DNA of 64,000 bases from Acidobacteriota bacterium (lineage in GTDB: Bacteria > Acidobacteriota > UBA6911 > RPQK01 > JADFOI01), in assembly GCA_963663035.1 (NCBI GenBank), contig OY760074.1:1952001-2016000 (forward strand). Direction: 5' to 3'. The translations under genes were made by a program, and so were the position numbers. The first letter of the stretch is position 1. Every line of letters starts with the position of its first letter. Below the pieces are notes generated by a model that was not told where the DNA came from, ran no database searches, and saw only the letters and a program-made list of their open reading frames with translations. This document shows, one piece after another, positions 9,639 to 24,289 of the stretch.

Positions 9639-11099
9639 ATGGAGATCTCTGAAGCCCTCACATTTGACGATATCCTGCTGATGCCAGCCAAGAGTAATGT
9701 CTTGCCGGGGGAAGTAGACCTCCAAACCCGCTTCTCTCGCAATATCCCTCTCAATATCCCTCTTGCTTCCGCGGCCATGGACACCGTGACGGAAGCCAGG
9801 TTGGCCATCGCTTTGGCCGGGCAGGGAGGGATCGGGATCGTCCACCGCAATCTGTCCATCGAAGCCCAGGTTGCCGAAGTGGAGAAAGTGAAGCGCTCTG
9901 AATCTGGAATGATCGTGGATCCTGTGACCATGCAACCCAAGGACCGGATCCGGGACGTTTTGGAGGTCATGGATCACCACAAAATCTCCGGTGTTCCCAT
10001 CACCGACACCAAAGGAAAGCTGTTTGGGATTCTCACCAACCGCGATTTGCGCTTCGAGACAGATCTGGATCTTCCGGTTTCGCAACTGATGACAAAAGAC
10101 AATCTGGTCACTGTGCGCCAAGGGATATCCATGGAAAAGGCCAAGAAGAAGCTTCACGAACACCGCATCGAAAAGCTGCTGGTGGTGGACAAGGAAAACC
10201 GACTAAAGGGCCTCATTACCGTCAAAGACATCATGAAGGTGATCACCTACCCCAATGCAGCCAAGGATTCCTATGGCCGCCTGCGGGTGGGAGCGGCCGT
10301 GGGTGCTACCGGAGATTTTTTGGAGCGGGCCATTGAACTGGAGAACGCCAAGGTTGATGTCATCGTGATGGACACGGCTCATGGGCATTCCATGCGCGTC
10401 CTGAAGGCGATCCGACAACTGAAAAAGAAGTTAAAGCGGGTTGATCTTGTGGTCGGTAATATCGCAACCGGGGAGGCGGTCCGCGAACTGGGTGATCTGG
10501 GCGTGGACGGCGTCAAAGTCGGCATGGGACCGGGCAGTATTTGCACCACTCGCGTGGTCACGGGGGCTGGAGTCCCTCAAGTTACGGCTATTATAAATGC
10601 GGCTCGAGTCGCCCGCAAGATGAAGCTTCCCCTCATTGCCGACGGCGGAATCAAGTACTCGGGAGACATCAGCAAGGCCCTGGCCTCGGGTGCCGACTGC
10701 GTGATGGCGGGGAACCTGTTTGCAGGCACCGACGAGTCTCCGGGCGAACTGGTCTTCTATCAGAACCGCAGCTACAAGACTTACCGAGGGATGGGCTCTC
10801 TGGGAGCCATGGGCGAGGGAAGCGCCGATCGATACGGCCAGGAGGATGTGGAGGTGCAGCGCAAATTGGTCCCGGAAGGCATTGAAGGGAGAGTTCCGTA
10901 CAAGGGCAGCACGGAGGATCTGATTCCGGTCCTAATGGGCGGGGTCCGAGCCGGAATGGGGTACTGTGGGGTTAAAAACATTCACGAGTTACGGACCAAA
11001 GTTCGCCTCATTCGCGTTAGCCACCTGGGACTGCGCGAGTCCCACGTTCACGACGTCATCGTGACCAAGGAAGCACCGAATTACCGCCTGGGGGACTAG
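9639..11099 (+). CDS. guaB: IMP dehydrogenase
   Basis: [12 protein letters not shown] pair, [30 protein letters not shown]. Confidence 0.98.
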
Positions 11100-11118
11100 C
11101 CCACATTTCTCACACCAG

Positions 11119-11240
11119 GTGTTCGTCGCGAAGCGGCGGAAGGGCCGGCCTGAGGCCGCTCCCACAGTCCACCGACCGCTAGGACCAGGCCCAGAAGGTG
11201 GGTGCCGCCTCAGTGCGGCGAATGGGCGCGAAGCGCCGCC
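11119..11240. repeat. GC-rich palindromic (REP-like) intergenic segment between convergent guaB and aroF
   Basis: ggcctgaggccgctcccac faces gtgggtgccgcctcagtgcggc; short gcgaagc palindromes at both ends. Confidence 0.4.
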
Positions 11241-12299
11241 TTATCTGGAAGTTGAAACCTGGAGCCTGGAATCCGAAACCCTTGAATCCGCTATCGTTCT
11301 TCCCACTGCTCCGGTAATCACTCGCAGTTCTTCCATCAGCATGTCAAAGTGCTCCAGGTCCAGGGTTTGAGCCCCATCACAGATGGCGTTTTCGGGGTCG
11401 TGGTGGACTTCCAGCAACAGACCATCAGCACCCGCCGCCGCCGCCGCTCGTGCCAGGGGCGGAACCTTGTCCCGAAATCCTATGGCATGGCTGGGGTCTA
11501 CGACAATGGGCAGATGGCTCAATTCATGTATGACCGGGATTGCCGAGATGTCCAGAGTGTTTCTGGTGTGCGTCTCAAAGGTGCGAATCCCTCTCTCACA
11601 AAGGATCACCCGCTGATTCCCTTCGGCCATAATGTATTCAGCCGCCAGGAGCAAATCGGAAATCGTAGCGCTCATCCCGCGCTTGAGGAGGGCCGGTATA
11701 CCACTCTGGCCAATGTCGCGCAGCAGACCGTAATTCTGCATGTTGCGAGCTCCGATCTGAATGATGTCGATGTAATCTCGAGCCAAAGGAAGTTGAGACG
11801 ATTCCATAACTTCCGAAATCACCAGCAGCCCATGTTTGTCGGCGGCCTTGCGAAGGTCCTTCAACCCCTTTTCGCCATGGCCCTGAAAGGAGTAAGGAGA
11901 TGTGCGAGGCTTGAAGGCCCCACCCCGGATCACCTTGGCTCCTGCGGCCTTGATTCTGCCAGCAATGATATCGGACTGCTCGAAATCCTCGATCGTGCAG
12001 GGGCCCGCCATCACCACAACCTCGTTGCCGCCGATTTTCACATCTCCCACCTCGATGATCGACCCCTCCGGGCAAAAAGCTCGTGAAGCCAGCTTATAGG
12101 GCTGGGTGATGGGGTGCACCTCTGCCACGCCATCCACCAGCTCAAAATCACGGATATCAACTACCTGAGAACCTACTGCACCCAGAATAGTATGCTCCAC
12201 ACCCGTGGAACGGTGCACGTCAAATCCCTGGGATACCAGTTTCTCGATCACACCTTCGATCTGGCCTTCCGTGGCACGTTGTTTCATCACAATAACCAT
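11241..12299 (-). CDS. aroF: DAHP synthase type I-beta with N-terminal ACT/ferredoxin-like domain
   Basis: MVIVMK N-terminal domain, AGPC, RGGAFKPRTSPYSFQG, IGARNMQN, LCERGIRTFE, DPSH. Confidence 0.95.
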   Translation of the reverse strand: MVIVMKQRATEGQIEGVIEKLVSQGFDVHRSTGVEHTILGAVGSQVVDIRDFELVDGVAEVHPITQPYKLASRAFCPEGSIIEVGDVKIGGNEVVVMAGPCTIEDFEQSDIIAGRIKAAGAKVIRGGAFKPRTSPYSFQGHGEKGLKDLRKAADKHGLLVISEVMESSQLPLARDYIDIIQIGARNMQNYGLLRDIGQSGIPALLKRGMSATISDLLLAAEYIMAEGNQRVILCERGIRTFETHTRNTLDISAIPVIHELSHLPIVVDPSHAIGFRDKVPPLARAAAAAGADGLLLEVHHDPENAICDGAQTLDLEHFDMLMEELRVITGAVGRTIADSRVSDSRLQVSTSR

Positions 12300-12305
12300 G
12301 GTTTG

Positions 12306-12635
12306 TTACTCCTTTTCTAGCTTCCTTGCACCTTTGTGCTCTTGTGTCTCGTGCGCATTCTTGAGAGCTCCTGACTCCCGCTCCGCCCGTCTGGACTCAT
12401 CGATAATTCTCTCAAATAGACGCTTGACAGCCTCCTTTGTGAGCGGTCCATGGGCCTCCTTCCGGACATTGCCAATGACGTCTTCTTCGCGTCTCGGGTC
12501 ATAAATCTCTATTTTCAGCTTGTCTTTCAGCTTTCCGATCTCAATGGCGCATTCACCGCGTTGATTGAGGAGCTTCACCAGCTTCAAATCGATTTCATCA
12601 ATCTTCCTGCGCCACTTCTCAATATCGTCCATCAC
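12306..12635 (-). CDS. Monofunctional chorismate mutase (AroQ type)
   Basis: R.KIDEID..LV.LLN.R...A.EIG.LK.....IYDP.RE..V...F..II.ESR. Confidence 0.9.
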   Translation of the reverse strand: MMDDIEKWRRKIDEIDLKLVKLLNQRGECAIEIGKLKDKLKIEIYDPRREEDVIGNVRKEAHGPLTKEAVKRLFERIIDESRRAERESGALKNAHETQEHKGARKLEKE

Positions 12636-12662
12636 TGAAATCCGTGTGATCCATACGTTCCC

Positions 12663-12701
12663 AAAAAAAAGGGCCGTGAGTAGCGTCCCTACCCACGGCC
12701 C
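12663..12701 (-). terminator. Intrinsic terminator of the aromatic attenuator
   Basis: Minus-strand GGGCCGUGGGUAG-ggacg-CUACUCACGGCCC-U8: 13-bp stem with one G-U, ending 27 nt before chorismate mutase. Confidence 0.9.
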
Positions 12702-12727
12702 TAGTCAGTCTCCCTTGTGACTTTTAC

Positions 12728-12796
12728 TTATACCGGTGGGCAGAAATTCTCCATGTGCCACCAATAAAAAAAATAAAAGTTACAAGCTAAAGTCAT
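12728..12796 (-). CDS. Aromatic-rich leader peptide MTLACNFYFFYWWHMENFCPPV (22 aa)
   Basis: ATG 12796 to TAA 12728; codons 7-13 are TTT TAT TTT TTT TAT TGG TGG; overlaps alternative pairing segments upstream of the terminator. Confidence 0.88.
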   Translation of the reverse strand: MTLACNFYFFYWWHMENFCPPV

Positions 12797-12806
12797 ACGC
12801 GCCTTT

Positions 12807-12835
12807 AAGTTAGCCGATTATGAGCCTGAAAGCAA
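12807..12835 (-). promoter_or_regulatory. Candidate promoter TTGCTT-17-TAACTT for leader/chorismate mutase/aroF
   Basis: -35 at 12835-12830 inside the trpA 3' end, -10 at 12812-12807, 10 nt before the leader ATG. Confidence 0.45.
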
Positions 12836-13591
12836 GCTTTTTCTGACATATTCTCCCACTTTTTTCACCAGCTCCGCATCCGCTCGGTGCTCTTCAATAA
12901 AGCCCACAATGGCCGAACCCACCACTGCTGCATCTGCGTACTGCCAGACCTTCCTGACATCTTCCTTCGAGGTAATACCAAAGCCCACTGCTATGGGGAG
13001 CCGTGTGTAGCGGCGTAGAAGCTCCACTGTCTTGGGAACCGCAGCTTCTACATCGGTTTGCTTCCCAGTGACGCCCGTACGTGCCACCAGGTAGAGAAAA
13101 CCCTGGCTGACGTCACAAATCTTCTGGAGCCGCTCATCCGAGGAGGTCGGAGCCGCCAGAAAGATCGTATCCAGTTCCTTCAGAGGCTCCATACGAGAGT
13201 ATTCCTCGGGCGTGAGGTCGGTGATCAGCACTCCATCCAGACCAGCCCGGAAACCTTCACGATCCAGGTTCTCCAGTCCATAACTCAAAACCGGATTCAT
13301 GTAGCTCATGAACACCAGTCCGACCTCGGTTCTGGTTCGAATCTCAGCAACCAGATCGATGTAATCAGAAAAAGAGTATCCGTGCTGGAGCGCCTGAAAG
13401 GACGCCTTTTGGATAATGGGGCCGTCGGCAATGGGATCAGAGAAAGGAATGCCGATCTCAACGACATGGGCTCCACTTTCCGCTAGATGCAAGACAATCT
13501 CCCGGGTCGTGTCCAGATCAGGATGACCCGCCGTCACATAGGGAATGAAACACTTCCTATTTTTGGCGAAGATCTTTGATAATCTCGACAT
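12818..13591 (-). CDS. trpA: Tryptophan synthase alpha
   Basis: [41 protein letters not shown]; start MSRL at 13591 preferred. Confidence 0.95.
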
Positions 13592-14780
13592 CTTTGTCTC
13601 CACGACCGGAAAGGTTGATGATAATCCTCAGATCACGCGGATCTGACTTCGTGAGCTGCGCCAACTCTTCTCTTTTCAGACAGTAGGCCACCGCATGTGC
13701 GGATTCCAGTGCCGGAATGATACCCTCCAGCTCACTGAGAACCCGAAAAGCCTCCAGCGCCTCCTGGTCGTCAACCGAAGTGTACTCAACGCGCCCGATG
13801 TCACGTAGATAGGCATGTTCAGGCCCGATGGAAGGGTAGTCCAGTCCCGCCGAGATGCTGTGAGTGGTCGAAACCTGACCAAGCTCGTCCTGCAGAAGGT
13901 AACTGAGGGTCCCGTGCAAGACCCCCGGCCTGCCACCTTGAAAACGAGCTGCATGCTGGCCCAGCTCTGGCCCTTTTCCACCCGCTTCCACCCCGATCAT
14001 CCTCACCGAGTCATCCTTGAGGAACTCGTAAAAGAGACCGATGGAATTGCTGCCCCCGCCCACGCAGGCGACGAGGAGATCAGGAAGCACGCCCTCCATC
14101 TCCAGAATCTGTTGGCGAGCTTCTCGGCCAATCACGGATTGAAAATCCCGCACTATCGTGGGATAGGGATGACCGCCCAAAACTGAACCCATCAGGTAAT
14201 GAGTATTTTCGACATTGGTCACCCAGTCTCTCATGGCCTCGTTAATGGCGTCCTTGAGAGTACAGGCTCCGGCATCCACCGGAGTCACCTGCGCTCCCAG
14301 GAGCTCCATACGAAAGACATTGAGCGCTTGCCTTCGCATGTCCTCGATGCCCATGTAAACCTCACACTCCAGATCCAGCAGCGCACAGACACTGGCCGTG
14401 GCCACACCATGCTGGCCGGCACCGGTCTCCGCGATAATTCGGCTCTTTCCCATCCGCCGCGCCAGAAGGGCCTGACCCAGAGCGTTGTTGATCTTGTGTG
14501 CACCCGTATGACAGAGGTCTTCTCGCTTCAAATAAACCCTATGGCCCACCCGCTCGGAAAAACGCCGGGCCGGGGTAAGCGGTGTGGGACGCCCTGCAAA
14601 AAGATGCAGAAGTTCCTCAAGCTCTCTCTGGAACTCCTCATCCGCTCCCGCCTCCAGGTAGGCCTGTTCCAACTCTTCCAAAGGAGACATGAGCGTCTCT
14701 GGGACGAAGACTCCCCCGTAACTGCCAAAGTGGCCTCCTGACTTGAACTCTTCCCTTTCAGGCTTCGATTTCTTACCCAT
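13557..14780 (-). CDS. trpB: Tryptophan synthase beta
   Basis: [48 protein letters not shown]. Confidence 0.98.
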
Positions 14781-15420
14781 TGCTTACACTCGCTCCCCTC
14801 ACATTCTCCATAAAACGCCTTAGTTTTCTTACGTCTTTCGTCCCCGGCGCCCCTTCGACTCCTGAACACACGTCCACGCCGGCTGGTTGAAGAAGATCAA
14901 TGGCTTCGGCCACATTCCCCGGCCTCAGGCCCCCCGACAGGATAAAAGGACGATCAATATTACGCAGCTCTTCCCAGTCAGCTGTCTTTCCCCGACCCCA
15001 GGAGGTATCGATGAGAATTTCGTGGTTGGGAAAGCGATGTGCTTCTGAAGGAGAGGTCGCAATATAAAGGGGTTGGTGGGCGGGAGGAAGTTCTGATTCA
15101 GAGTGCAGACCGTGCAGCTGAAAGGAGCCGATCGAAGGCACACGGCTGCTCGCTTTGGCTGTAGCGCTGAGAACGTCCTCACCGCTGACGACCATCACAG
15201 CCACCGTCAGGACATTCTCTGGAATTGCTTGAATGATCTCTTCAACCTCTTCCGGATCAATATAACGCGGGCTTTGGAGGTAAAAATTGAATCCCAGCGC
15301 GTTGGCTCCCAACTCGATAGAACTCAGAGCATCTTTGAGATTCGTGATTCCGCAAACCTTCACCATGAAACAGGGCGAATTCTTGACTCCGAATTGACCC
15401 GACTGCTCCTCAGCTGACAT
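14773..15420 (-). CDS. trpF: Phosphoribosylanthranilate isomerase
   Basis: [35 protein letters not shown]; true start may be about 15366. Confidence 0.92.
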
Positions 15421-15423
15421 GGA

Positions 15424-16233
15424 TTATTCCTCGCCTCTCAGTTGCCGCAGGGTCGCTCCTGGGTCGGAAGAGTCCATGAGAACCGAGCCGATCAGAAAAG
15501 CACTGAAGCCGGCATCCTGCAGCTCAACGATCTGTGAGTGTTCCTGGATTCCCGACTCTGAAATCAGGATGTAGCCTTCCTCTCCCTCCATCCGCCTGGC
15601 CATCTCAAAGGAGGTGCCAAGATCGACTTGAAATGTACGCAGGTCGCGATTGTTGATCCCAATGATGCGAGCACCACTGTTGATAGCCTTCTCCAATTCA
15701 AAGGGATCATGAATCTCAACTAAAGCATCGAGGTGAAACTCCTCTCCCAAGCGGATCAGACTCTCAAGTTGCCCCTCGGACAGACAGGAAGCAATCAGTA
15801 GAAAGGCCGAGGCGCCGGCATTCCTGGATTCAACCACTTGATACCGATCCACTATGAAATCCTTTCGCAACAGGGGTGTCTCGGGCATTTCCTGGGCAAT
15901 TTCCTTCAAGAAAGCCAAGTCTCCGGCGAAGTAGTTCTTCTCAGTCAGCACTGACAGGGCCACGGCTCCATTCTCGCGGTAGACTCTGGCCAGATCCCCA
16001 GCGGGCAGCTGGCAGGCAAAGGCGCCGCGGCTGGGACTCTTATATTTGATTTCCGCGATGATGTTGACACCAGCTTCTGTCAGTGCGGACTGAAAGGAGA
16101 CAGATAACTGCTCAGGAATCTGGCCCAGCAGATCCTCCAGGGGAAGCTCTTTTCTGGTCTCGATGAGTTCCCGCTTCTTGGATGCGACGATTTCCTCAAG
16201 TACAGTCACGTGTTCTCCACTGACAACTAACAA
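15424..16233 (-). CDS. trpC: Indole-3-glycerol-phosphate synthase
   Basis: IIAEIKYKSPS, SVLTE, LRKDF, GINNRDL, SESG; real start likely GTG about 16209 because the upstream part is heptamer repeat. Confidence 0.95.
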   Translation of the reverse strand: MLVVSGEHVTVLEEIVASKKRELIETRKELPLEDLLGQIPEQLSVSFQSALTEAGVNIIAEIKYKSPSRGAFACQLPAGDLARVYRENGAVALSVLTEKNYFAGDLAFLKEIAQEMPETPLLRKDFIVDRYQVVESRNAGASAFLLIASCLSEGQLESLIRLGEEFHLDALVEIHDPFELEKAINSGARIIGINNRDLRTFQVDLGTSFEMARRMEGEEGYILISESGIQEHSQIVELQDAGFSAFLIGSVLMDSSDPGATLRQLRGEE

Positions 16234-16254
16234 CTGACAACTGACAGTTGACAG
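16220..16254. repeat. Heptamer tandem repeat (YTRACAR)x5 between trpD and trpC
   Basis: ctgacaa ctaacaa ctgacaa ctgacag ttgacag. Confidence 0.9.
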
Positions 16255-17265
16255 TTAAGTTGTTGAATAGACCTTGATCAGTTGCGATAACTTCTCCAAT
16301 GCGGCACCCGAATCCAGAGACTCCCTGGCCTGCTCGATAGCCTCGTTGAAATCCCCTGCTCCCGCCACATGCAGAGCTGCCGCAGCATTGAGGACCACGA
16401 CGTCGCGGGCCGGACCCTGAATCTCACCTTCCAGGATTCCGCGAATCATGCGGGCATTCTCTTCCGCTGAGCCACCCGAGAGTTGCTCAATGGGACTGAC
16501 CTCAAAGCCAAGATCCTTTGGATCCAGATCGAAACTTTCCACTTTCCCGTCTCTGGCATCGGATATGCGCGCCGGGGCTCCCGTGGAGAGCTCATCCAGA
16601 CCATCGTGACTGTGGACCACCCAGGCTCTTTGGCAGCCCAAACCCAACAGGGCACGAGCCAACTTCTCGGTCAGGTCAGGAGAATAGACACCCACAATTT
16701 GATAGGGAGCCGAAGCCGGATTGGTCAAGGGACCCAACAGATTGAAAATGGTTCGCCGGCCGAGTTCACGCCGAATTTTGGCCACCCTCTTCATGGCGGG
16801 ATGAAAATGTGGAGCAAACATGAAAGCCAGACCAATTTCATTCAAAGAGGGCTCCGCGGCTTCCAAAGACCTTTCAATCCGAACTCCCAAGGCGTCCAGG
16901 ACATCAGCACTGCCGCAGCGGGAGGTGAGGGCCCGATTGCCGTGTTTGGCCACCGGAAGGCCCCCACCGGCGATCACAAAGACCGCAGCAGTCGAGATGT
17001 TAAAAGTATCCGCTCCCCCTCCCGTCCCTGCCGTATCGATCAACCTGGCATGCCTGGCACGCACAGGAATGGCCTGCCGGCGCATCACGCGGGCAAAACC
17101 GACGATCTCTGCAGGGCCCTCTCCTTTGATGGCCAGTGCTGTCAACAGAGCGCCGATGTCCTCATCGGGCGTCTCCTTCGCAAGAATCAGCTCCAGTGAC
17201 TGTTCCGCTTGAGCTTCAGTCAGGTCCTCGCCCTCACTGACGACTCTTGTGAATTCCTTCAGCAT
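16255..17265 (-). CDS. trpD: Anthranilate phosphoribosyltransferase
   Basis: DTAGTGG, FNIST, KHGNR..S..GSAD, RTIFNLLGPLTNP, DGLDE. Confidence 0.97.
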   Translation of the reverse strand: MLKEFTRVVSEGEDLTEAQAEQSLELILAKETPDEDIGALLTALAIKGEGPAEIVGFARVMRRQAIPVRARHARLIDTAGTGGGADTFNISTAAVFVIAGGGLPVAKHGNRALTSRCGSADVLDALGVRIERSLEAAEPSLNEIGLAFMFAPHFHPAMKRVAKIRRELGRRTIFNLLGPLTNPASAPYQIVGVYSPDLTEKLARALLGLGCQRAWVVHSHDGLDELSTGAPARISDARDGKVESFDLDPKDLGFEVSPIEQLSGGSAEENARMIRGILEGEIQGPARDVVVLNAAAALHVAGAGDFNEAIEQARESLDSGAALEKLSQLIKVYSTT

Positions 17266-17266
17266 G

Positions 17267-17833
17267 TCATTGTTGTAAAAAATTTTCTAAAATCTTCTGT
17301 CCTTCCAGGGTCATGACGGATTCGGGGTGAAATTGGACTCCAAAGACATCATACTCTCGATGACGCAAACCCATGATCAACTCATCCTCGGTCCAGGCGT
17401 TCACAAGCAGACATTCAGGCCAATCTTCTCGCCCTAACATAAGAGAATGGTATCGGGTGGCCTCGAAGGGATTGGGAATATTCGACAGCACCGAATCACT
17501 GTCATGATAGATGAAAGAAGTCTTGCCATGCATCAGCTGTGGGGCCCGGACCACCTTGGCTCCGAAAGCTTCCCCGATGGTTTGGTGACCCAGGCAGACT
17601 CCTAATATGGGGATTCGGGCGGCGAACTCTCGAACCAAAGAGACACAGATTCCCGCATTGCAGGGCAGTCCTGGTCCAGGGGATATCACGATACGGTCTG
17701 GATTCACCTTGCTGATGTCGGCAAGAGTCACTGCGTCGTTCCGGTAAACCTGGATATCACAGCCCAGCATGCCCAGATACTGCACCAGGTTATAGGTAAA
17801 ACTATCGTAGTTATCGATGACTAGAATTTTCAT
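17267..17833 (-). CDS. trpG: Anthranilate synthase component II
   Basis: IDNYDSFTYNL, ISPGPG, GVCLGHQ, RYHSL, QFHPES. Confidence 0.95.
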   Translation of the reverse strand: MKILVIDNYDSFTYNLVQYLGMLGCDIQVYRNDAVTLADISKVNPDRIVISPGPGLPCNAGICVSLVREFAARIPILGVCLGHQTIGEAFGAKVVRAPQLMHGKTSFIYHDSDSVLSNIPNPFEATRYHSLMLGREDWPECLLVNAWTEDELIMGLRHREYDVFGVQFHPESVMTLEGQKILENFLQQ

Positions 17834-17852
17834 TCCAAGTTAAGAGCCTTTT

Positions 17853-17885
17853 CTCCTGACTCCTGACTCCTGTCTCCTGACTCCT
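17853..17885. repeat. Heptamer tandem repeat (CTCCTGW) between trpE and trpG
   Basis: ctcctga ctcctga ctcctgt ctcctga ctcct. Confidence 0.9.
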
Positions 17886-17889
17886 TTTC

Positions 17890-19266
17890 TCATGCCAGCT
17901 GCTCCCCCAATTCCACGGCTCGAATGAGCGCCTCGGCTTTGTGGAAACACTCCTTGTTTTCCAATTTGGGGACTGAATCGGCAACGATCCCGGCGCCGGC
18001 CTGTATATAAGCCTTTCCCTCCTTTAGAACAACCGTGCGAATGGTAATACAGGTGTCAAGATTCCCTGAGTAATCCAGATACCCGATAGCACCTGCATAA
18101 ATGCCTCTCCGGATGGGCTCAAGCTCCTGGATGATCTCCATGGCTCTCACCTTGGGAGCTCCGCTGACCGTCCCGGCCGGAAAGCACGCCGCCAACGCAT
18201 CGAAGCGATTCAACTCGGGGCGCAAGGAACCTCGCAAGGCACTCACCAGGTGCATCACATGAGAGTACTTTTCCAGGAACATGAGACCCTCTACCTGCAC
18301 GGATCCGTATTCACTGACGCGCCCCAGATCGTTGCGACCGAGATCAACAAGCATGAGATGCTCGGCCCGCTCCTTTTCATCAGAGAGCAACTCCTCTTCA
18401 AGCTCTTTCTCTTCCGTTGCATTGCGTCCGCGCCGGCGGGTACCCGCGATAGGCCGATATTGAAGGTCCCGCCCCTGAACGCGGATCAGCATCTCCGGCG
18501 AAGAGCCGGCAATGCTCTGATTCCCCAACTTGAGAAAGAACATATAGGGGGACGGATTGAGGACACGCAGAGCTCGATAGACGTTGAAGGGATCCCCTTC
18601 AAAATCGGTTTCAAACCGCTGGGAAAGAACCGCCTGAAAGATGTCTCCTGCACGGATGTATTCCTTCACCTTTTCTACGGCGGCATAAAAACCTTCCTGG
18701 GAGAAGCTGGATGTGACTTTCTTGTGTGAAGTTTGGGGATAGTCACCGAGTTCGCGAGACACTAACTGGGTGTCTGTCCCCAATTTCACCTGCCCCCCAA
18801 ACAGCCTTTCTTCCAGCTCTTCCACCTTCCTTTCCCCCTGGTGGGACAGGATGATGATTTGGTGTTTCAGGTGGTCAAAGGCCAGGATTTCGGAGTAAAA
18901 ATCCATCAGCACTGGTCCGGAGCCACTCTCCAATTCAGTGCTGTCGGCCCCCTTCAGTTCCGGTAATCGTTCAAACTCCCGGACCATTTCGTAGCAAAAG
19001 GCACCCACGGCTCCTCCGGTAAAAGGCGGAAGATCCGGGTGGGAGGGGCGTTTTTCCGAAAAATTGCGGCGGAAGTCTGCGAAATTACCTTCGAAGCTTT
19101 GATCAGGATCGACTCCGATGAAGGAATAACGCCCGATCTTCTCTCCGCCTTCGACCGATTCCAGCAGAAAGGCCCGCTCGGAGTCCCTGGCAATTCTCAG
19201 AAAGGCCGAGACCGGGGTGAGCAAGTCTGCCAAAACTGACTTATGATAAATCATCCAACGTTTCAC
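17890..19266 (-). CDS. trpE: Anthranilate synthase component I
   Basis: LLES (Trp feedback motif), NPSPYM, SSPE, PIAGTRRRG, EHLMLVDLGRND, PAGTVSGAPK. Confidence 0.95.
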   Translation of the reverse strand: MKRWMIYHKSVLADLLTPVSAFLRIARDSERAFLLESVEGGEKIGRYSFIGVDPDQSFEGNFADFRRNFSEKRPSHPDLPPFTGGAVGAFCYEMVREFERLPELKGADSTELESGSGPVLMDFYSEILAFDHLKHQIIILSHQGERKVEELEERLFGGQVKLGTDTQLVSRELGDYPQTSHKKVTSSFSQEGFYAAVEKVKEYIRAGDIFQAVLSQRFETDFEGDPFNVYRALRVLNPSPYMFFLKLGNQSIAGSSPEMLIRVQGRDLQYRPIAGTRRRGRNATEEKELEEELLSDEKERAEHLMLVDLGRNDLGRVSEYGSVQVEGLMFLEKYSHVMHLVSALRGSLRPELNRFDALAACFPAGTVSGAPKVRAMEIIQELEPIRRGIYAGAIGYLDYSGNLDTCITIRTVVLKEGKAYIQAGAGIVADSVPKLENKECFHKAEALIRAVELGEQLA

Positions 19267-19279
19267 TCAATTCCGTGTA

Positions 19280-19490
19280 GCCGGGATTATGCATAGGTTT
19301 TCGTGACGAAGTGCCACAGGCGCCGCGATGACAAGGCGGGCGAAGGGGTACCCGCTTGCGGGTCGGGCCCCGCAGGCGTACTCATGCAGTACGCCGAGGA
19401 GCCCAAGGGGTACCCGCTCTGCGGGTCGCACAACGCAGTCAGCGTGGATGATTGCGGCACTGCAGTAGAAAATTTATGCATAATCCCGGC
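19280..19490. mobile_element. MITE copy 1 (211 bp, with 64-bp internal expansion), TA-flanked
   Basis: TA|GCCGGGATTATGCATA ... TATGCATAATCCCGGC|TA; near-identical to 37965-38111 and 42958-43104 outside the expansion. Confidence 0.88.
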
Positions 19491-19491
19491 T

Positions 19492-19529
19492 AAAATAAAA
19501 AGGCCGTGGAGAAATTCTCCACGGCCTTT
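19492..19529 (-). terminator. Attenuator terminator upstream of trpE
   Basis: Perfect 14-bp inverted repeat AAAGGCCGTGGAGA-att-TCTCCACGGCCTTT running into UUUUUAUUUU on the minus strand. Confidence 0.88.
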
Positions 19530-19585
19530 GAGCTTTGATCTCTACTGGGCCCTATGAAGGTTACAGTTCTCCGGCGTCTGGAGTC

Positions 19586-19627
19586 TTAGTTGTACTCGAT
19601 CCGCCAGAAGCAACCGTAAACAATCAT
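19586..19627 (-). CDS. trp leader peptide MIVYGCFWRIEYN (13 aa)
   Basis: SD-like GAGGAAGG before ATG 19627, single TGG at 19606-19604, TAA at 19588-19586, upstream of the terminator. Confidence 0.7.
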   Translation of the reverse strand: MIVYGCFWRIEYN

Positions 19628-19646
19628 ATGGCCTTCCTCATCCGCT

Positions 19647-19676
19647 AGCATAGGAGGACCCGGACCTCTAAGTCAA
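19647..19676 (-). promoter_or_regulatory. Candidate trp promoter TTGACT-18-TATGCT
   Basis: -35 at 19676-19671, -10 at 19652-19647. Confidence 0.55.
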
Positions 19677-19717
19677 GAACTTTTTTGCCCTCAGTGGTTC
19701 CAGCGCGCTTCGCGCAC

Positions 19718-19862
19718 GTTCCAGGTTCCAAGTTCCGACTTTGGGATTTGGAATTCTGAATTTGGAATTTGTTTGGAATTTTGAATTTGGGATTTCAGCC
19801 GGTCTGTCGGCTGTTGTCAGCTGTCAGTTGTCAGCTGTCAGTTGTCAGCTGTCAGTTGTCAG
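19718..19862. repeat. Composite heptamer array (TTCCAGG / TTGGAAT / TGTCAGY) with embedded palindrome CAGCCGGTCTGTCGGCTG
   Basis: Three heptamer classes in succession after the rho stop; 19791-19818 recurs inverted at 26385-26412. Confidence 0.85.
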
Positions 19863-21169
19863 TGGCCCTGTTTTCCGCCGGCTGACATGGAATTGAGGAA
19901 CTCGGCATTGCTCTTGACCTTACTCAGCTTTTCAAGCAGCAATTCCATGGCCTCGGTAGCAGAGAGCGGGTTGAGAACTTTCCGCAGCACCCAGACCCGG
20001 TTTAGCGTCTCTTTATCCAGCAGCAATTCTTCCTTGCGGGTACCGGAACGATTGATATCGATAGCCGGGAAAATCCTCTTGTCCACCAGCTTGCGATCCA
20101 GATGCAACTCCAAGTTACCTGTTCCCTTGAACTCTTCGAAAATAACATCATCCATTCGGCTGCCGGTGTCAATCAGGGCGGTAGCAACAATGGTCAGACT
20201 CCCCCCTTCCTCTATGTTGCGTGCAGCACCGAAGAAGCGCTTGGGACGTTGCAAGGCATTGGAATCCACACCACCCGAGAGCACCTTGCCAGAAGGAGGA
20301 ACGATGGTGTTGTAAGCGCGGGCCAGCCGGGTGATGGAATCGAGCAGAATGACCACGTCTTTCTTGTGCTCGACCAGCCGCTTGGCCTTTTCAAGCACCA
20401 TCTCAGCCACCTGGACGTGCCGGGTAGCCGGCTCGTCAAACGTCGAGCTGATGACCTCACCCCCTACCGATCGCTCCATATCGGTCACCTCTTCGGGGCG
20501 CTCGTCGATGAGCAACACGATGAGCACGCTATCGGGATGGTTGGTGGTGATCGAGTTGGCCAGGCTCTGCAGAATCATGGTTTTTCCTGCCCGGGGCGGC
20601 GAAACGATCAATCCCCGCTGTCCTTTCCCAATCGGGGTCAGGAGATCCATGACTCGCCCTGCCAGGTTGTCCTGAGTGGTCTCCTGAATAAGTTGCTCCT
20701 CGGGATAGAGCGGTGTCAGGTTTTCGAAGAAGGTCCTCTCCCGAGCGACGTCCGCATGCTCGAAGTTAATCGCCTCCACCTTAATCAGGGCAAAGTAGCG
20801 CTCGCCCTCCTTGGGAGGCCTAACCTGTCCCGAAACCGTGTCGCCGGTTCGCAGGTCAAATTTGCGGATTTGAGACGGTGAGACGTAGATGTCATCCGGA
20901 CCAGGGAGGTAATTGTATTCGGGGGCCCTCAGGAAACCGAACCCATCGGGCAGAGTTTCCAGCACGCCTTCTGAAAAAATCAGTCCACTGCGCTCGGTTT
21001 GTGCCTTCAGGATCTGAAAGATCAGTTCCTGCTTACGCATCCCCGTTAACCCAGTAATACTCAAGTCCTTGGCAACTTGAGTCAACGCCTGGATGTTCAA
21101 TTCCTTGAGCTCTTGAATGTTCAAAGAATCCACTTTCTGTTTGACTGAGGGGGAACTTGCTTCACCCAT
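19859..21169 (-). CDS. rho: Transcription termination factor Rho
   Basis: [54 protein letters not shown]. Confidence 0.98.
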
Positions 21170-21172
21170 GAC

Positions 21173-21730
21173 TTAAATCCTCTCCAGTATTCGCCACAAT
21201 TCCTTCTTCCCCATTCCTGTGGCGGCGGAATAAGGGATTACACCACAATGGAAAACGTTTTTCATCCTATTTAGAGACTTTTGAAGCTGATGGGACGACA
21301 GCTTGTCAACCTTGGTTGCAACAACCTGGAATGGAATGCTGAACTGTTCGAGCCACTGTTTCATGACCCGGTCCAGTTCAGTCGGCTCATGGCGAGCATC
21401 CACGATCATAACCGTCAGCTTCAGGTTCTCGTCCTCTCTCAGAAATTCCTCAATCATCACTCCCCAACGGGCCCGAATGTTGGCTGGAACCTTGGCAAAT
21501 CCATAACCCGGCAAGTCTGTAAAAATCCATCTGTCATTGACATTGAAAAAGTTGATGACCTGGGTGCGCCCTGGTGTGGCACTGGTCCTGGCCAAACCCT
21601 TTTTACCCACCAGATTATTAATTAAGCTGGATTTTCCAACATTTGATCTTCCCGAAAACGCGATCTTGGGAAGCTGCAGCTGAGGATATTCCCCTTTGTG
21701 AGTCGCGCTTTTGAGAAAGTGAACAACCAC
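21173..21730 (-). CDS. engB: Ribosome biogenesis GTPase EngB/YihA
   Basis: GRSNVGKSSLIN, PGRTQ, DLPGYG, TKVDK. Confidence 0.95.
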   Translation of the reverse strand: MVVHFLKSATHKGEYPQLQLPKIAFSGRSNVGKSSLINNLVGKKGLARTSATPGRTQVINFFNVNDRWIFTDLPGYGFAKVPANIRARWGVMIEEFLREDENLKLTVMIVDARHEPTELDRVMKQWLEQFSIPFQVVATKVDKLSSHQLQKSLNRMKNVFHCGVIPYSAATGMGKKELWRILERI

Positions 21731-21868
21731 TGACGGCTAACAGTTTACCACTAACAAAGCAGAATCACGATTCGTGGAATGCCAAATCTTGAATTGACAG
21801 CTCTGTGTCACACGTTGTTTGGATTTATGTCGTCAATTGCCAGTTGTCAACTGTCTGCGGCTAGCTGT

Positions 21869-24289
21869 TCAGTGGACGCCGGGACGATCTCCCTCCTTGA
21901 TCTGAGGAGGTCGCTGTTCTTTCACCACTTCTTCTCGGTCCTTTTTGCGGATGGGTCCTTCAAATGCGATGTCCAAAACCTCATCCATGGTATCGACGAG
22001 CACAATCTTAACATCTTCCAGGACCGAGGTGGGAATTTCTTTCAAATCTTTCTCATTGTCTCTTGGTAAAATAACCGTCTTTATACCGCCCCGGTGAGCG
22101 GCCAGCACTTTCTCTTTGACTCCACCAATGGGCAAGACCTTACCTCGCAGTGTGATTTCACCGGTCATGGCTACGTCACGGCGCACGGGAACGCCAGCCA
22201 GTGCCGATATAATCGTAGTGGCCAGGGCAATCCCCGCAGAAGGCCCATCTTTCGGAATAGCACCTTCGGGAACATGGATATGAAGATCCAGTAACTTGTG
22301 GAAATCCCTTCCCAAACCAAACTCGCTACTCCGGGAGCGGACAAAGGACAATGCCGCTTTGGCCGATTCCTGCATCACCTCACCGAGCTTGCCGGTGAGC
22401 GTCAGGTTACCCTTTCCTTTCATGGTGGTCGCTTCGGTCAGAAGGACTTCACCGCCCACCTCGGTCCAGGCCAAACCGGTGGCCAAACCGACTTCACTGG
22501 CCTCTGCGACCAAGGGCTGACGGTATCTTTGAACACCCAGAAGCTCCCCCACTACCTTTGGGGCGATGACGGACTTTTTGTGTTCCTTTTTCTTTCCTTT
22601 GGCCACTACAACCTGGCGGGCCACTTTACGGCAAACGTTGGCGATCTCTCGCTCAAGACTGCGAACGCCCGACTCACGCGTAAAGCTACGGATAATTTCC
22701 AGAATGCCTTCCTCGCTGAACTCAATATTGGAGGGCTTCAGACCCTGCTTTTTTAACTGCTTCTTGACCAGGTACTGTGTGGCAATGTTCAATTTTTCCA
22801 ACTCAGTGTAACCGGAGATGTGGACAACTTCCATCCGGTCTTGAAGCGGCCGCGGAATGGTATGAAGCACGTTAGCGGTGCAAATAAACATGACGTTGGA
22901 AAGATCGAATTCGGTATCCAGATAGTGGTCGACAAAGGTACGGTTGTGTTCCGGATCCAGCACTTCCATTAACGCCGCTGAGGGATCGCCGCGAAAATCC
23001 ATGCTCATCTTGTCCACTTCGTCCATCAGGAACACCGGATTCTTGGTGCCTGCCTTCTTCATCATCTGGATGATCTGGCCTGGCAGGGCGCCGATATAGG
23101 TCCTGCGGTGTCCGCGAATCTCCGCCTCATCCCGGACTCCACCCAGCGAGAGCCTGACAAACTTGCGCCCGGTAGCGTGAGCGATGGAACTTCCCAAGGA
23201 ACTCTTTCCCACTCCCGGAGCACCCACGAAGCAGAGGACTGATCCCTGCTGTGTCTTGGCAGAAAGTTGCCGAACCGCCAGAAACTCCAGGATACGCTCT
23301 TTCACTTTCTCGAGCCCATAATGATCTTCATTTAAAGCGCGCTCGGCCCGCAGCAGATCCTTGATCTCACGACTTCTCTTACTCCACGGCATGCTGACCA
23401 GCCAATCGATATAAGTGCGACTGACAGTCGTCTCAGCACTCATAGGAGGCATCTGCTCCAGACGCTGAATCTCGTTGGTCGCTTTTTCATGAGCGTCTTT
23501 CGGCATCTTCGCCTCTTCGACCTTTTTCTTCAGCTGTTCGATCTCATCTTTCTCGTTTCTTCCCAGCTCCTTCTGGATGGCCTTCATTTTTTCGCTCAGA
23601 TAGTACTCGCGCTGGGCCTTTTCCATCTGGCGACGCACACGGCCTTGAAGAGACTTGTCCATCTTGACCTTGTCGATCTCGATGTCAATGAACTCGCATA
23701 TCTTCTCGATCCGCTGGGCAGGATCGGCGATCTCCAGCAAGGCCTGCTTGTCTTCCACCGAAATGGGCAGATTGGCTGCAATGGTATCGGCGAGACGGTC
23801 GGCCTCGCTGCTGTGTGCCGCCTGAATTATCGTCTCATCGTTAATGTTCGGATTGAGCTTGGCAAATTCCTCAAAGAGAGAATTCAACCGCTTGGTCAAC
23901 AGGCTCAGCTTGGAAGGGGAGACTTTGGACACCGGATCGAACTTCACTTCCGCCTGAAAAAACCCGTCCACTTCCTCCACCCGAACAGCTCGCGCTCGCC
24001 GCAGACCTTCAACCAGAACCTTAATATTGCCATCGGGAAGTTTGAGGCTCTGAACGATATTGGCTGCTGTCCCGACCGGATAGATGTCAGCAGAGGTAGG
24101 ATTATCCATGGAGGCGTCGATCTGGGTGGCCAGATAGATCTTCTTGTCGGACTCCAGAGCCCTCTCCAAAGCCAACACCGAGGAGTGGCGCCCGATGACG
24201 AAGGGGACCATCATGTAAGGAAAGACCACCACGTCCCGGATCGGAACCATGGGATAGATTTCAGTCACTTTCTCGTCTAAGTTTGTCAT
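21869..24289 (-). CDS. lon: Lon protease
   Basis: [46 protein letters not shown]. Confidence 0.98.

Follow-up and report, generated by a model that had tools for sequence, protein, structure and literature searches.

A probable leader-peptide attenuator with mixed aromatic codons between the trp operon and chorismate mutase in Acidobacteriota

The aromatic leader at the boundary of trpA and chorismate mutase

The window analyzed here is a stretch of 64,000 nucleotides (nt) from an Acidobacteriota bacterium (GenBank assembly GCA_963663035.1, contig OY760074.1, positions 1,952,001 to 2,016,000; genome of 3,594,683 bases, 54% G+C), and the element under study lies in the spacer between trpA, the last gene of a trpEGDCFBA operon, and a gene for chorismate mutase. 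This spacer is 182 nt long when counted to the GTG at 12635 (homologues favor the ATG at 12632 as the start of chorismate mutase) and holds a leader open reading frame (ORF) followed by a terminator. [quoted passage not shown] The features of the locus are listed in Table 1. Comparison among relatives and RNA folding make it very probable that the element is a classical ribosome-mediated (leader-peptide) transcription attenuator; such an attenuator with an aromatic leader in front of chorismate mutase and DAHP synthase had been proposed in the initial annotation of this DNA, and both kinds of evidence strongly support it.

Table 1. Features of the trp-chorismate mutase-DAHP synthase region (window positions; MFE, minimum free energy; aa, amino acids)
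Feature	Position	Strand	Remarks
rho	21169-19859	minus	followed by promoter-like site, short leader, terminator, and trpE
Attenuator-like unit 5' of trpE	19676-19495	minus	promoter-like box, leader ORF, terminator
Promoter-like TTGACT-N18-TATGCT	19676-19647	minus	
trpE leader ORF	19627-19586	minus	aromatic-rich, MIVYGCFWRIEYN
trpE leader terminator	19529-19499	minus	14 bp
trpEGDCFBA (trpE-G-D-C-F-B-A)	19266-12818	minus	
trpA	12818-13603	minus	last gene of trpEGDCFBA; Pfam TrpA; stop codon 12820-12818
-35-like hexamer TTGCTT	12830-12835	minus	inside last trpA codons; TTGAT(T/C) in relatives
-10-like hexamer TAACTT	12807-12812	minus	just past trpA stop, 17 nt after -35-like hexamer; TAnnnT in relatives
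Leader ORF	12728-12796	minus	22 codons + TAA, encodes MTLACNFYFFYWWHMENFCPPV; ATG 12796-12794, TAA 12730-12728
Putative regulatory codons 7-13	12758-12778	minus	UUU UAU UUU UUU UAU UGG UGG (FYFFYWW), read from sequence
Segment 1	12758-12786	minus	5' arm of 1:2 hairpin, overlaps aromatic codons; MFE folds
Segment 2 core UUUCUGCCCACCGGU	12732-12746	minus	pairs with segment 1 or segment 3; leader stop 12730-12728 directly 3'
Segment 3 CCGUGGGUAGGGA	12686-12702	minus	terminator 5' arm 12702-12689, also antiterminator 3' arm 12699-12686
Segment 4 and U8 tract	12663-12683	minus	terminator 3' arm 12683-12670, U8 12670-12663; fold and terminator scan
Chorismate mutase (AroQ, CM_2)	12306-12635	minus	109 aa from GTG 12635; Pfam 1.3e-23
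DAHP synthase, type I-beta	11241-12299	minus	352 aa, N-terminal ferredoxin-like domain; Pfam DAHP_synth_1; NCBIfam NF006421

The initial annotation had reported an unannotated ORF with seven successive aromatic codons in the 182-nt gap, and the ORF reads exactly as described, with a candidate ribosome-binding site, AAGG, located 5 nt 5' of its ATG at 12796. A six-frame count of consecutive Phe, Tyr, and Trp codons over the genome gave 22 runs of length 5, 2 of length 6, and 1 of length 7, the last being that of the leader ORF (12796-12728); in 13 neighboring genes, these three residues together account for 5.9% of codons. The 7-codon run, unique in the six-frame genome, is more than a chance reading; the leader would be translated, and ribosomes would stall there. 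The two 6-codon runs found elsewhere were considered as further leaders and rejected, as both lie out of frame inside long genes.

The four RNA segments expected of an attenuator are found where the initial annotation had placed them, namely GGUGGCA at 12762-12756, CUGCCCACCGGU at 12743-12732, GGGCCGUGGGUAG at 12701-12689, and CUACUCACGGCCC at 12683-12671, with U8 at 12670-12663. The terminator scan gives a 14-pair stem (12702-12670) with 9 G-C pairs followed by T8, for a hairpin initially counted as 13 bp. The 166-nt leader RNA folds at -56 kcal/mol, compared with -40.8 +/- 3.5 kcal/mol for 200 shuffled sequences (z = -4.3), none of which was as good, and the MFE structure of the unmasked full leader consists of the 1:2 hairpin and the terminator. 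Ribosome stalling was simulated by masking everything up to 12 nt beyond the A-site codon and folding the transcript through segment 3. When any of codons 8-13 occupies the A site, the MFE structure is a 14-bp antiterminator in which 12746-12732 pairs with 12699-12686 (-24.7 kcal/mol); this helix is progressively eroded from codon 16 and is gone when the ribosome reaches the stop codon, leaving the terminator without a competitor. Masking of segment 1 by a stalled ribosome thus yields the antiterminator, and its exposure yields the 1:2 hairpin with the terminator, which is the behavior expected from the segment assignment.

These folds suggest the following sequence of events. RNA polymerase, coming either from the trp operon or from the promoter-like site over the end of trpA, would transcribe the 22-codon leader. 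When charged tRNA-Phe, tRNA-Tyr, or tRNA-Trp is scarce, the translating ribosome would stall on codons 7-13, cover segment 1, and leave segment 2 (UUUCUGCCCACCGGU) free to pair with segment 3 (CCGUGGGUAGGGA) once the latter has been made, which would withhold the 5' arm of the terminator and let the polymerase continue into chorismate mutase and DAHP synthase. When all three tRNAs are charged, the ribosome would reach the UAA codon and cover segment 2, the 14-bp terminator and U8 would form, and transcription would stop 27-30 nt before chorismate mutase. The response of read-through to starvation is inferred from these models.

Two routes of transcription into the leader can be considered. Transcripts of the trp operon must enter it, since only 21 nt separate the trpA stop codon from the leader ATG and the terminator scan found no terminator-like site in this interval. 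In addition, the -35-like hexamer TTGAT(T/C) is present in 22 of 23 leader-bearing loci (TTGCTT in the window), and TAnnnT follows 17 nt later in 21 of 23. In sigma-70 promoters, the -10 positions that carry the most weight are the three kept invariant here, and all 27 loci compared use TTG for the Leu codon within the -35-like hexamer. TTGAT(T/C)-N17-TAnnnT over the end of trpA is a probable internal promoter; the window's own version, TTGCTT-N17-TAACTT, was not flagged by a consensus promoter scan. Past the terminator, the U tract lies 27-30 nt from the start of chorismate mutase, and the scan found no promoter-like site between the two; with neither the room nor a candidate promoter there, chorismate mutase and DAHP synthase would have to be reached by read-through.

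Conservation among relatives and competing explanations

Relatives were collected both as loci found with the DAHP synthase and as whole genomes of the same order fetched via chorismate mutase. The DAHP synthase relatives are labeled Acidobacteriota or Terriglobia, and 14 of the 80 loci obtained show trpA, chorismate mutase, and DAHP synthase in synteny; among the 30 loci fetched by chorismate mutase, 29 contain both this gene and trpA. When a leader was defined as an ORF with at least four of six aromatic residues, an aromatic ORF was found between trpA and chorismate mutase in 24 of these 29 loci (22 of 27 without the window locus and the unpublished genome G017). A covariance model, R1, built from 18 leader sequences and run on 76 genomes of the order, added three genomes (G001, G063, and G064). 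In total, the leader is present in 26 published genomes, that is, the window genome (G000) and 25 others of the same order, where an aromatic leader ORF is kept at the same position between trpA and chorismate mutase. With strict filters, R1 misses the variant of genus g6 in 7 of 9 genomes of that genus, so that R1 tallies undercount the element.

The aromatic run is kept while the nucleotides diverge, appearing as FYFFYWW, FYWFYWW, FYLFYWW, FCFFYWW, YYLFYHW, FYLFYHGY, YLFFY, FYFYY, YFYRW, FYFLYWW, or FYYFF, and the position of the leader stop codon is also kept across several families. For example, all seven genomes of the window genus (g1) carry FY(F/L/W)FYWW-H...(C/R)PPV, with FCFFYWW in one of them; other genera of the family carry FYFFYWW, FYLFYHGY, YYLFYHW, YLFFY, or FYFYY; genus g25 has YFYRW or YFYWW followed by ...YPPE; G024 has FYFLYWW; and genus g6 has a shorter leader, MVSLRGFYYFFRNG.

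The leader ORF is missing in five of the 29 loci with trpA and chorismate mutase (G012, G021, G029, G026, and G047). In G012 (locus L091), it has decayed to ATG GGC CTG TAG and the terminator is lacking, and in G021 (L099), the promoter-like boxes and the terminator are kept and the leader ORF is lost; both resemble natural loss variants. The DAHP synthase of G021 comes up in several tblastn pieces. G029, G026, and G047 have different trpA-chorismate mutase spacers. A further leader, that of G010 (L092), has an in-frame TAG right after FYFY with a segment 2-like sequence kept downstream, which may reflect an error of sequencing or assembly or else a shortened variant whose ribosome never covers segment 2. 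In more distant Acidobacteriota (L004-L014), the leader is absent, and trpA and chorismate mutase nearly abut or flank a repeat element.

The pattern of conservation bears on the simplest alternative, according to which the trp operon simply ends in this hairpin and U8, the small ORF being fortuitous and without a part in regulation. A position 116 nt past the trpA stop codon is a plausible place for an operon terminator, and in the related Acidobacteriota L005 and L010-L014, trpA approximately abuts chorismate mutase with no leader in between. Such a reading would nevertheless have to account for an ORF whose aromatic run and stop position are kept across families despite nucleotide divergence, for the only 7-codon aromatic run in the genome, and for the conservation of the segment complementary to the terminator 5' arm. 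Moreover, with chorismate mutase so close behind the U tract and no promoter-like site between them, a terminator acting constitutively would shut off the single chorismate mutase found. We consider this alternative highly improbable.

Conservation of the RNA structure was measured on an alignment of 18 sequences (A1). The terminator helix is paired in 97.6% of cells, six of its pairs are invariant, and columns 121 and 136 change on both sides (CG 6, UA 6, UG 5), giving one compensatory pair. The antiterminator has a core of 8 pairs, formed by columns 69-76 (CUGCCCAC) and columns 116-123 (GUGGGYAG), in which 141 of 144 cells are paired; sliding the partners by 1-3 columns leaves only 30-49% of cells paired over the whole structure. 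Column 121 takes part in both helices: its partner is column 71 in the antiterminator (GU 8, GC 7, AU 3) and column 136 in the terminator, and this alternation is the pattern that an attenuator predicts. Stall simulations of 23 orthologs gave the expected switch in the 15 leaders of family f1 and genus g25 that are open to a stop codon adjacent to segment 2; in these, a stall at the last aromatic codon sequesters 10-14 of the 5' arm's 13-17 bases, compared with 0-7 when the ribosome sits at the stop codon.

The end of the leader peptide is itself conserved, which raises the question of whether the product of the ORF is a functional micropeptide or a nascent arrest peptide, with a C terminus (H..CPPV) that matters as protein and not solely as a template for stalling. 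Pro-Pro-(V/I/E/A)-stop closes 17 of the 26 leaders (the 7 of g1, G011, G009, G013, G014, and the 6 of g25), and Pro-Pro is a known slow-translating motif (cf. bioRxiv 10.1101/2024.04.15.589488). However, the CCCACC that encodes Pro-Pro is also the core of segment 2, which pairs with segments 1 and 3, so that the conservation of the dipeptide can be explained by the nucleotides alone. Pro-Pro is, furthermore, replaced in G008 (CPLV), G007 (CSSL), G024, and the g6 group, and the N-terminal part is free to vary. A role of the peptide as such is in our view improbable.

T-box, TRAP-like, and riboswitch systems control aromatic genes in Firmicutes, and a switch set by a trans factor of this kind (uncharged tRNA bound to a T-box, a TRAP-like protein, or a metabolite riboswitch) rather than by the ribosome has also to be weighed. 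A cmscan of positions 10000-22000 against Rfam at E <= 10 gave no hit to a T-box or leader family, and the conserved feature here is an ORF with aromatic codons, which such mechanisms do not need; we give this explanation, which nothing specific favors here, very little credence. The only Rfam family overlapping the leader was SorY, whose 19.3 bits fall far short of its gathering score of 111, and the relatives L001 and L002 had no Rfam match at gathering thresholds.

Several observations weigh against the attenuator as formulated above. When segment 4 is included in the simulations, the terminator is the equilibrium fold in every case, so that the model needs the usual kinetic, co-transcriptional argument. 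The 1:2 hairpin is the weakest element: its helices are kept less well than the others (68-80% of cells paired in A1), and the unmasked truncated transcript of 12 of the 23 orthologs still folds as the antiterminator, which means that termination in these would need a ribosome reaching the stop codon, not the 1:2 hairpin. In G010, where the in-frame stop follows FYFY, 10 bases are sequestered in both states, and in G024, 6 bases are sequestered in all states. The g6 variant competes with the terminator via 6 bp only (ACGGCU with GGCCGU of the terminator arm), the ACGGCU overlapping the last sense codons and the stop of the leader. The four-segment scheme was tried on these g6 relatives (FYYFFRNG) and does not fit them; the competitor is a 6-bp extension stacked on an intervening hairpin, which forms when the ribosome stalls at the first aromatic codon and disappears when it stalls at the last one in 4 of 5 genomes.

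The antiterminator pairs are mostly conserved rather than covarying, and the one compensatory pair of the terminator lies in a column shared with the antiterminator. The observed count of doubly changed antiterminator pairs is reached by 79 of 500 shuffles, some of the controls being weak, and the aligned sequences are kin, so that all of these figures describe conservation and not independent events. In the family of the window, only 10 nt separate the -10-like hexamer from the leader ATG (21-26 nt in g25 and g6); a transcript starting there would be nearly leaderless, with an ~4-nt 5' untranslated region lacking a Shine-Dalgarno sequence. Among eight sequencing runs found, two metatranscriptomes labeled as RNA (one label recorded and one guessed; 0.10 and 0.05 of words) contained no contig over 12225-13372, and the metatranscriptome contigs obtained at 85% likeness are short, come from relatives, lie over parts of DAHP synthase and trpB/trpA, and are uninformative on expression or 3' ends. 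Lastly, 9 of the 26 leaders have no Trp codons.

Scope of control and a possible Trp signal

According to the initial annotation, the leader controls entry into the shikimate pathway. What stands of this claim is that it precedes the sole CM_2 chorismate mutase found in the genome and one DAHP synthase; as a statement about pathway entry, it is overstated. PF00793 has three matches in the genome, namely the attenuated DAHP synthase, KdsA, and a second type I-beta DAHP synthase of 346 aa, which is 44% identical to the attenuated paralog and lies outside the window (G000:C1 ~338035-339075; L111:1536-2576, minus strand). This second gene lacks a leader, beginning 12 nt downstream of an OmpA-like lipoprotein gene, and no type II DAHP synthase was found in the genome. 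The attenuator would accordingly be expected to govern the enzyme at the Phe/Tyr branch point together with one of the two isoenzymes of entry, and not the entry of the whole pathway.

The breadth of the signal calls for a similar distinction. "Trivalent," as the leader was first described, is apt for the codon content of the window genus, where Phe, Tyr, and Trp codons occur in all seven genomes; across the 26 leaders, Phe and Tyr codons are universal, whereas Trp codons are found in 17. The UGGUGG that encodes Trp-Trp also supplies the segment 1 bases paired with CCACC in segment 2, so that sequence alone does not separate selection for Trp sensing from selection for structure. On balance, we lean toward a real Trp response of the leader. 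The competing view is that the attenuator is effectively a Phe/Tyr sensor in which UGG UGG is kept for G-rich pairing with CCACC, Trp limitation being neither selected for nor physiologically relevant. This view would fit the uneven distribution of Trp codons and the presence of other G-rich codons (CGG, GGG, CAC-GGG) at this place in relatives without WW, as well as the nature of the first controlled gene, since chorismate mutase draws chorismate away from Trp. It would also be in line with the aroR leader of Corynebacterium glutamicum, reported in a review to have responded to Phe and not to Tyr (PMC11802643), from which it follows that codon content is no guarantee of response. Against it, WW is kept in all seven genomes of the genus and in g3, G024, and G059 while adjoining codons vary, and in the folds an empty A site at UGG codons 12-13 is the best-placed stall to cover segment 1 and free segment 2. 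In addition, the trp operon reads straight into the leader, so that stalling at Trp codons would usefully add DAHP synthase to the trp message. A leader blind to Trp thus seems to us unlikely, although it deserves more weight than the alternatives discussed above.

A related leader before trpE and comparison with known attenuators

The attenuator-like unit 5' of trpE resembles the leader between trpA and chorismate mutase. Its leader region (19627-19495) scores 24.8 bits with R1, mainly via the terminator motif GGCCGUGG...CCACGGCC and the U tract, and its 156-nt RNA folds with z = -5.6. The corresponding leaders of relatives read MIVCSFFWRNWDI, MAIFSFFRYGWRF, and MTNNSFLGHTWRLLAT, with a single Trp-Arg as conserved core. 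The two elements share the terminator motif and differ in that the trpE leader has a single Trp-Arg instead of an aromatic run and would control trpEGDCFBA. The existence of a related attenuator-like trpE leader with Trp-Arg makes it plausible that this lineage uses leader-peptide control. We tentatively suggest, as a reading less likely to be right than wrong, that the two related attenuators bracketing trpEGDCFBA form a conditional operon boundary and an OR gate. The downstream attenuator would end trp transcripts when aromatic tRNAs are charged and fuse trp with chorismate mutase and DAHP synthase when Trp (WW) is short, and the promoter embedded in the end of trpA (TTGAT-N17-TAnnnT) would independently supply an almost leaderless leader mRNA through which Phe and Tyr act. 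Pro-Pro before the stop would serve as a built-in pause, keeping the ribosome over segment 2 until the terminator has formed.

The Rfam families Trp_leader and Phe_leader represent the enterobacterial trpL-trpEDCBA and pheL-pheA attenuators. The acidobacterial leader shares their four-segment logic, with the regulatory codons in segment 1, the stop codon by segment 2, and competition between 2:3 and 3:4 pairing followed by a U tract; on the other hand, trpL and pheL each carry codons for one amino acid and control a terminal pathway, whereas the acidobacterial leader has codons for three amino acids and precedes entry and Phe/Tyr branch-point enzymes. Multivalent leaders are known from Escherichia coli in thrL (Thr and Ile) and ilvL (Leu, Val, and Ile), which likewise use a single leader for several amino acids of one pathway but concern other amino acids and genes and have no sequence relation to the present element. 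The DAHP synthase class of C. glutamicum aroF probably differs from that of the acidobacterial gene, and the two phyla are distant.

The initial annotation set the element beside the E. coli scheme of DAHP synthase isoenzymes and TyrR; the closest precedent is instead aroR-aroF of C. glutamicum, together with uORFC-13-1 of Acholeplasma. PMC4046766 predicted the aroR leader (Phe-Tyr-Phe) ahead of aroF, and according to a review (PMC11802643), Neshat et al. showed in 2014 that it responds to Phe limitation. As far as these sources describe it, aroR is a short mixed-aromatic leader ORF directly upstream of a DAHP synthase operon that acts by ribosome-mediated attenuation, in an organism with two DAHP synthases, one of them under the leader. 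It differs in having three regulatory codons and no Trp, compared with seven including two Trp in the acidobacterial leader, and in belonging to another phylum and not lying behind a trp operon; the cited descriptions of aroR mention no chorismate mutase, and the resemblance extends no further than function and arrangement. In front of aroF in Acholeplasma, the uORFC-13-1 motif, predicted solely from comparative analysis (PMC8632094), similarly combines an upstream ORF with Phe codons, promoter-like boxes, and a terminator before a DAHP synthase gene, but it is found in Mollicutes, and it is described as a U run coding for at least one Phe, with no mention of a Tyr/Trp run. Database-predicted attenuators before aroA-I-beta operons have also been tabulated (PMC1173090, Table 7). 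Our literature searches returned no description of such an attenuator in Acidobacteriota, in agreement with the initial statement that no characterized example is known in this lineage, and the element would represent a new sequence family of a known mechanism without an Rfam counterpart.

Similar arrangements were seen in other phyla, where small ORFs with aromatic runs, followed by a strong G+C hairpin and a U tract, precede type I-beta DAHP synthase. These loci are labeled Chloroflexota (L039, L041, L045, L070, and L071), Oceanobacillus (L061), Clostridia (L017, L026, L029, L031, L037, and L062), and Negativicutes (L072, L076, and L077), and L035 is a further one; examples of their runs are YYYF, YSYFYF, YYYYYYF, ..IYYFNFYWGF.., and SYSYYYGYGYF. 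At the loci of other phyla with aromatic leaders, no Rfam match was found at the leader, and one T-box in L062 lies on the opposite strand. From these sequences, DAHP synthase attenuation by aromatic leaders looks widespread and not yet catalogued.

[quoted passage not shown] What is distinctive is the combination of codons for three amino acids, a position at the boundary of the trp operon and the chorismate mutase-DAHP synthase pair, and a related leader in front of trpE. As the mechanism is a textbook one, the finding may strike a specialist as neat rather than surprising. The natural presence or absence of Trp codons would make these leaders a good system in which to follow the gain and loss of a signal in multivalent attenuators.

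Repeats of two kinds were also noted. Between the trp leader terminator and trpE lies a 209-nt element with terminal inverted repeats (..CCGGGATTATGCATA..; 19281-19489). Its 15-nt repeat end occurs 28 times on one strand of the genome and 24 times on the other, and eight pairs of ends lie within 600 nt of each other, five of them ~145 nt; the element looks like a member of a family of miniature inverted-repeat transposable elements. Similar repeat ends are found between the aro terminator and chorismate mutase in L088 and L089. Tandem heptamers of the type CTGACA(A/G) are present on the minus strand at 19860-19801, just past the rho stop codon, and at 16250-16231 in the trpD-trpC gap, and a GTCAGCTGTCAG-type stretch resembling these heptamers lies near genome position 2389050.

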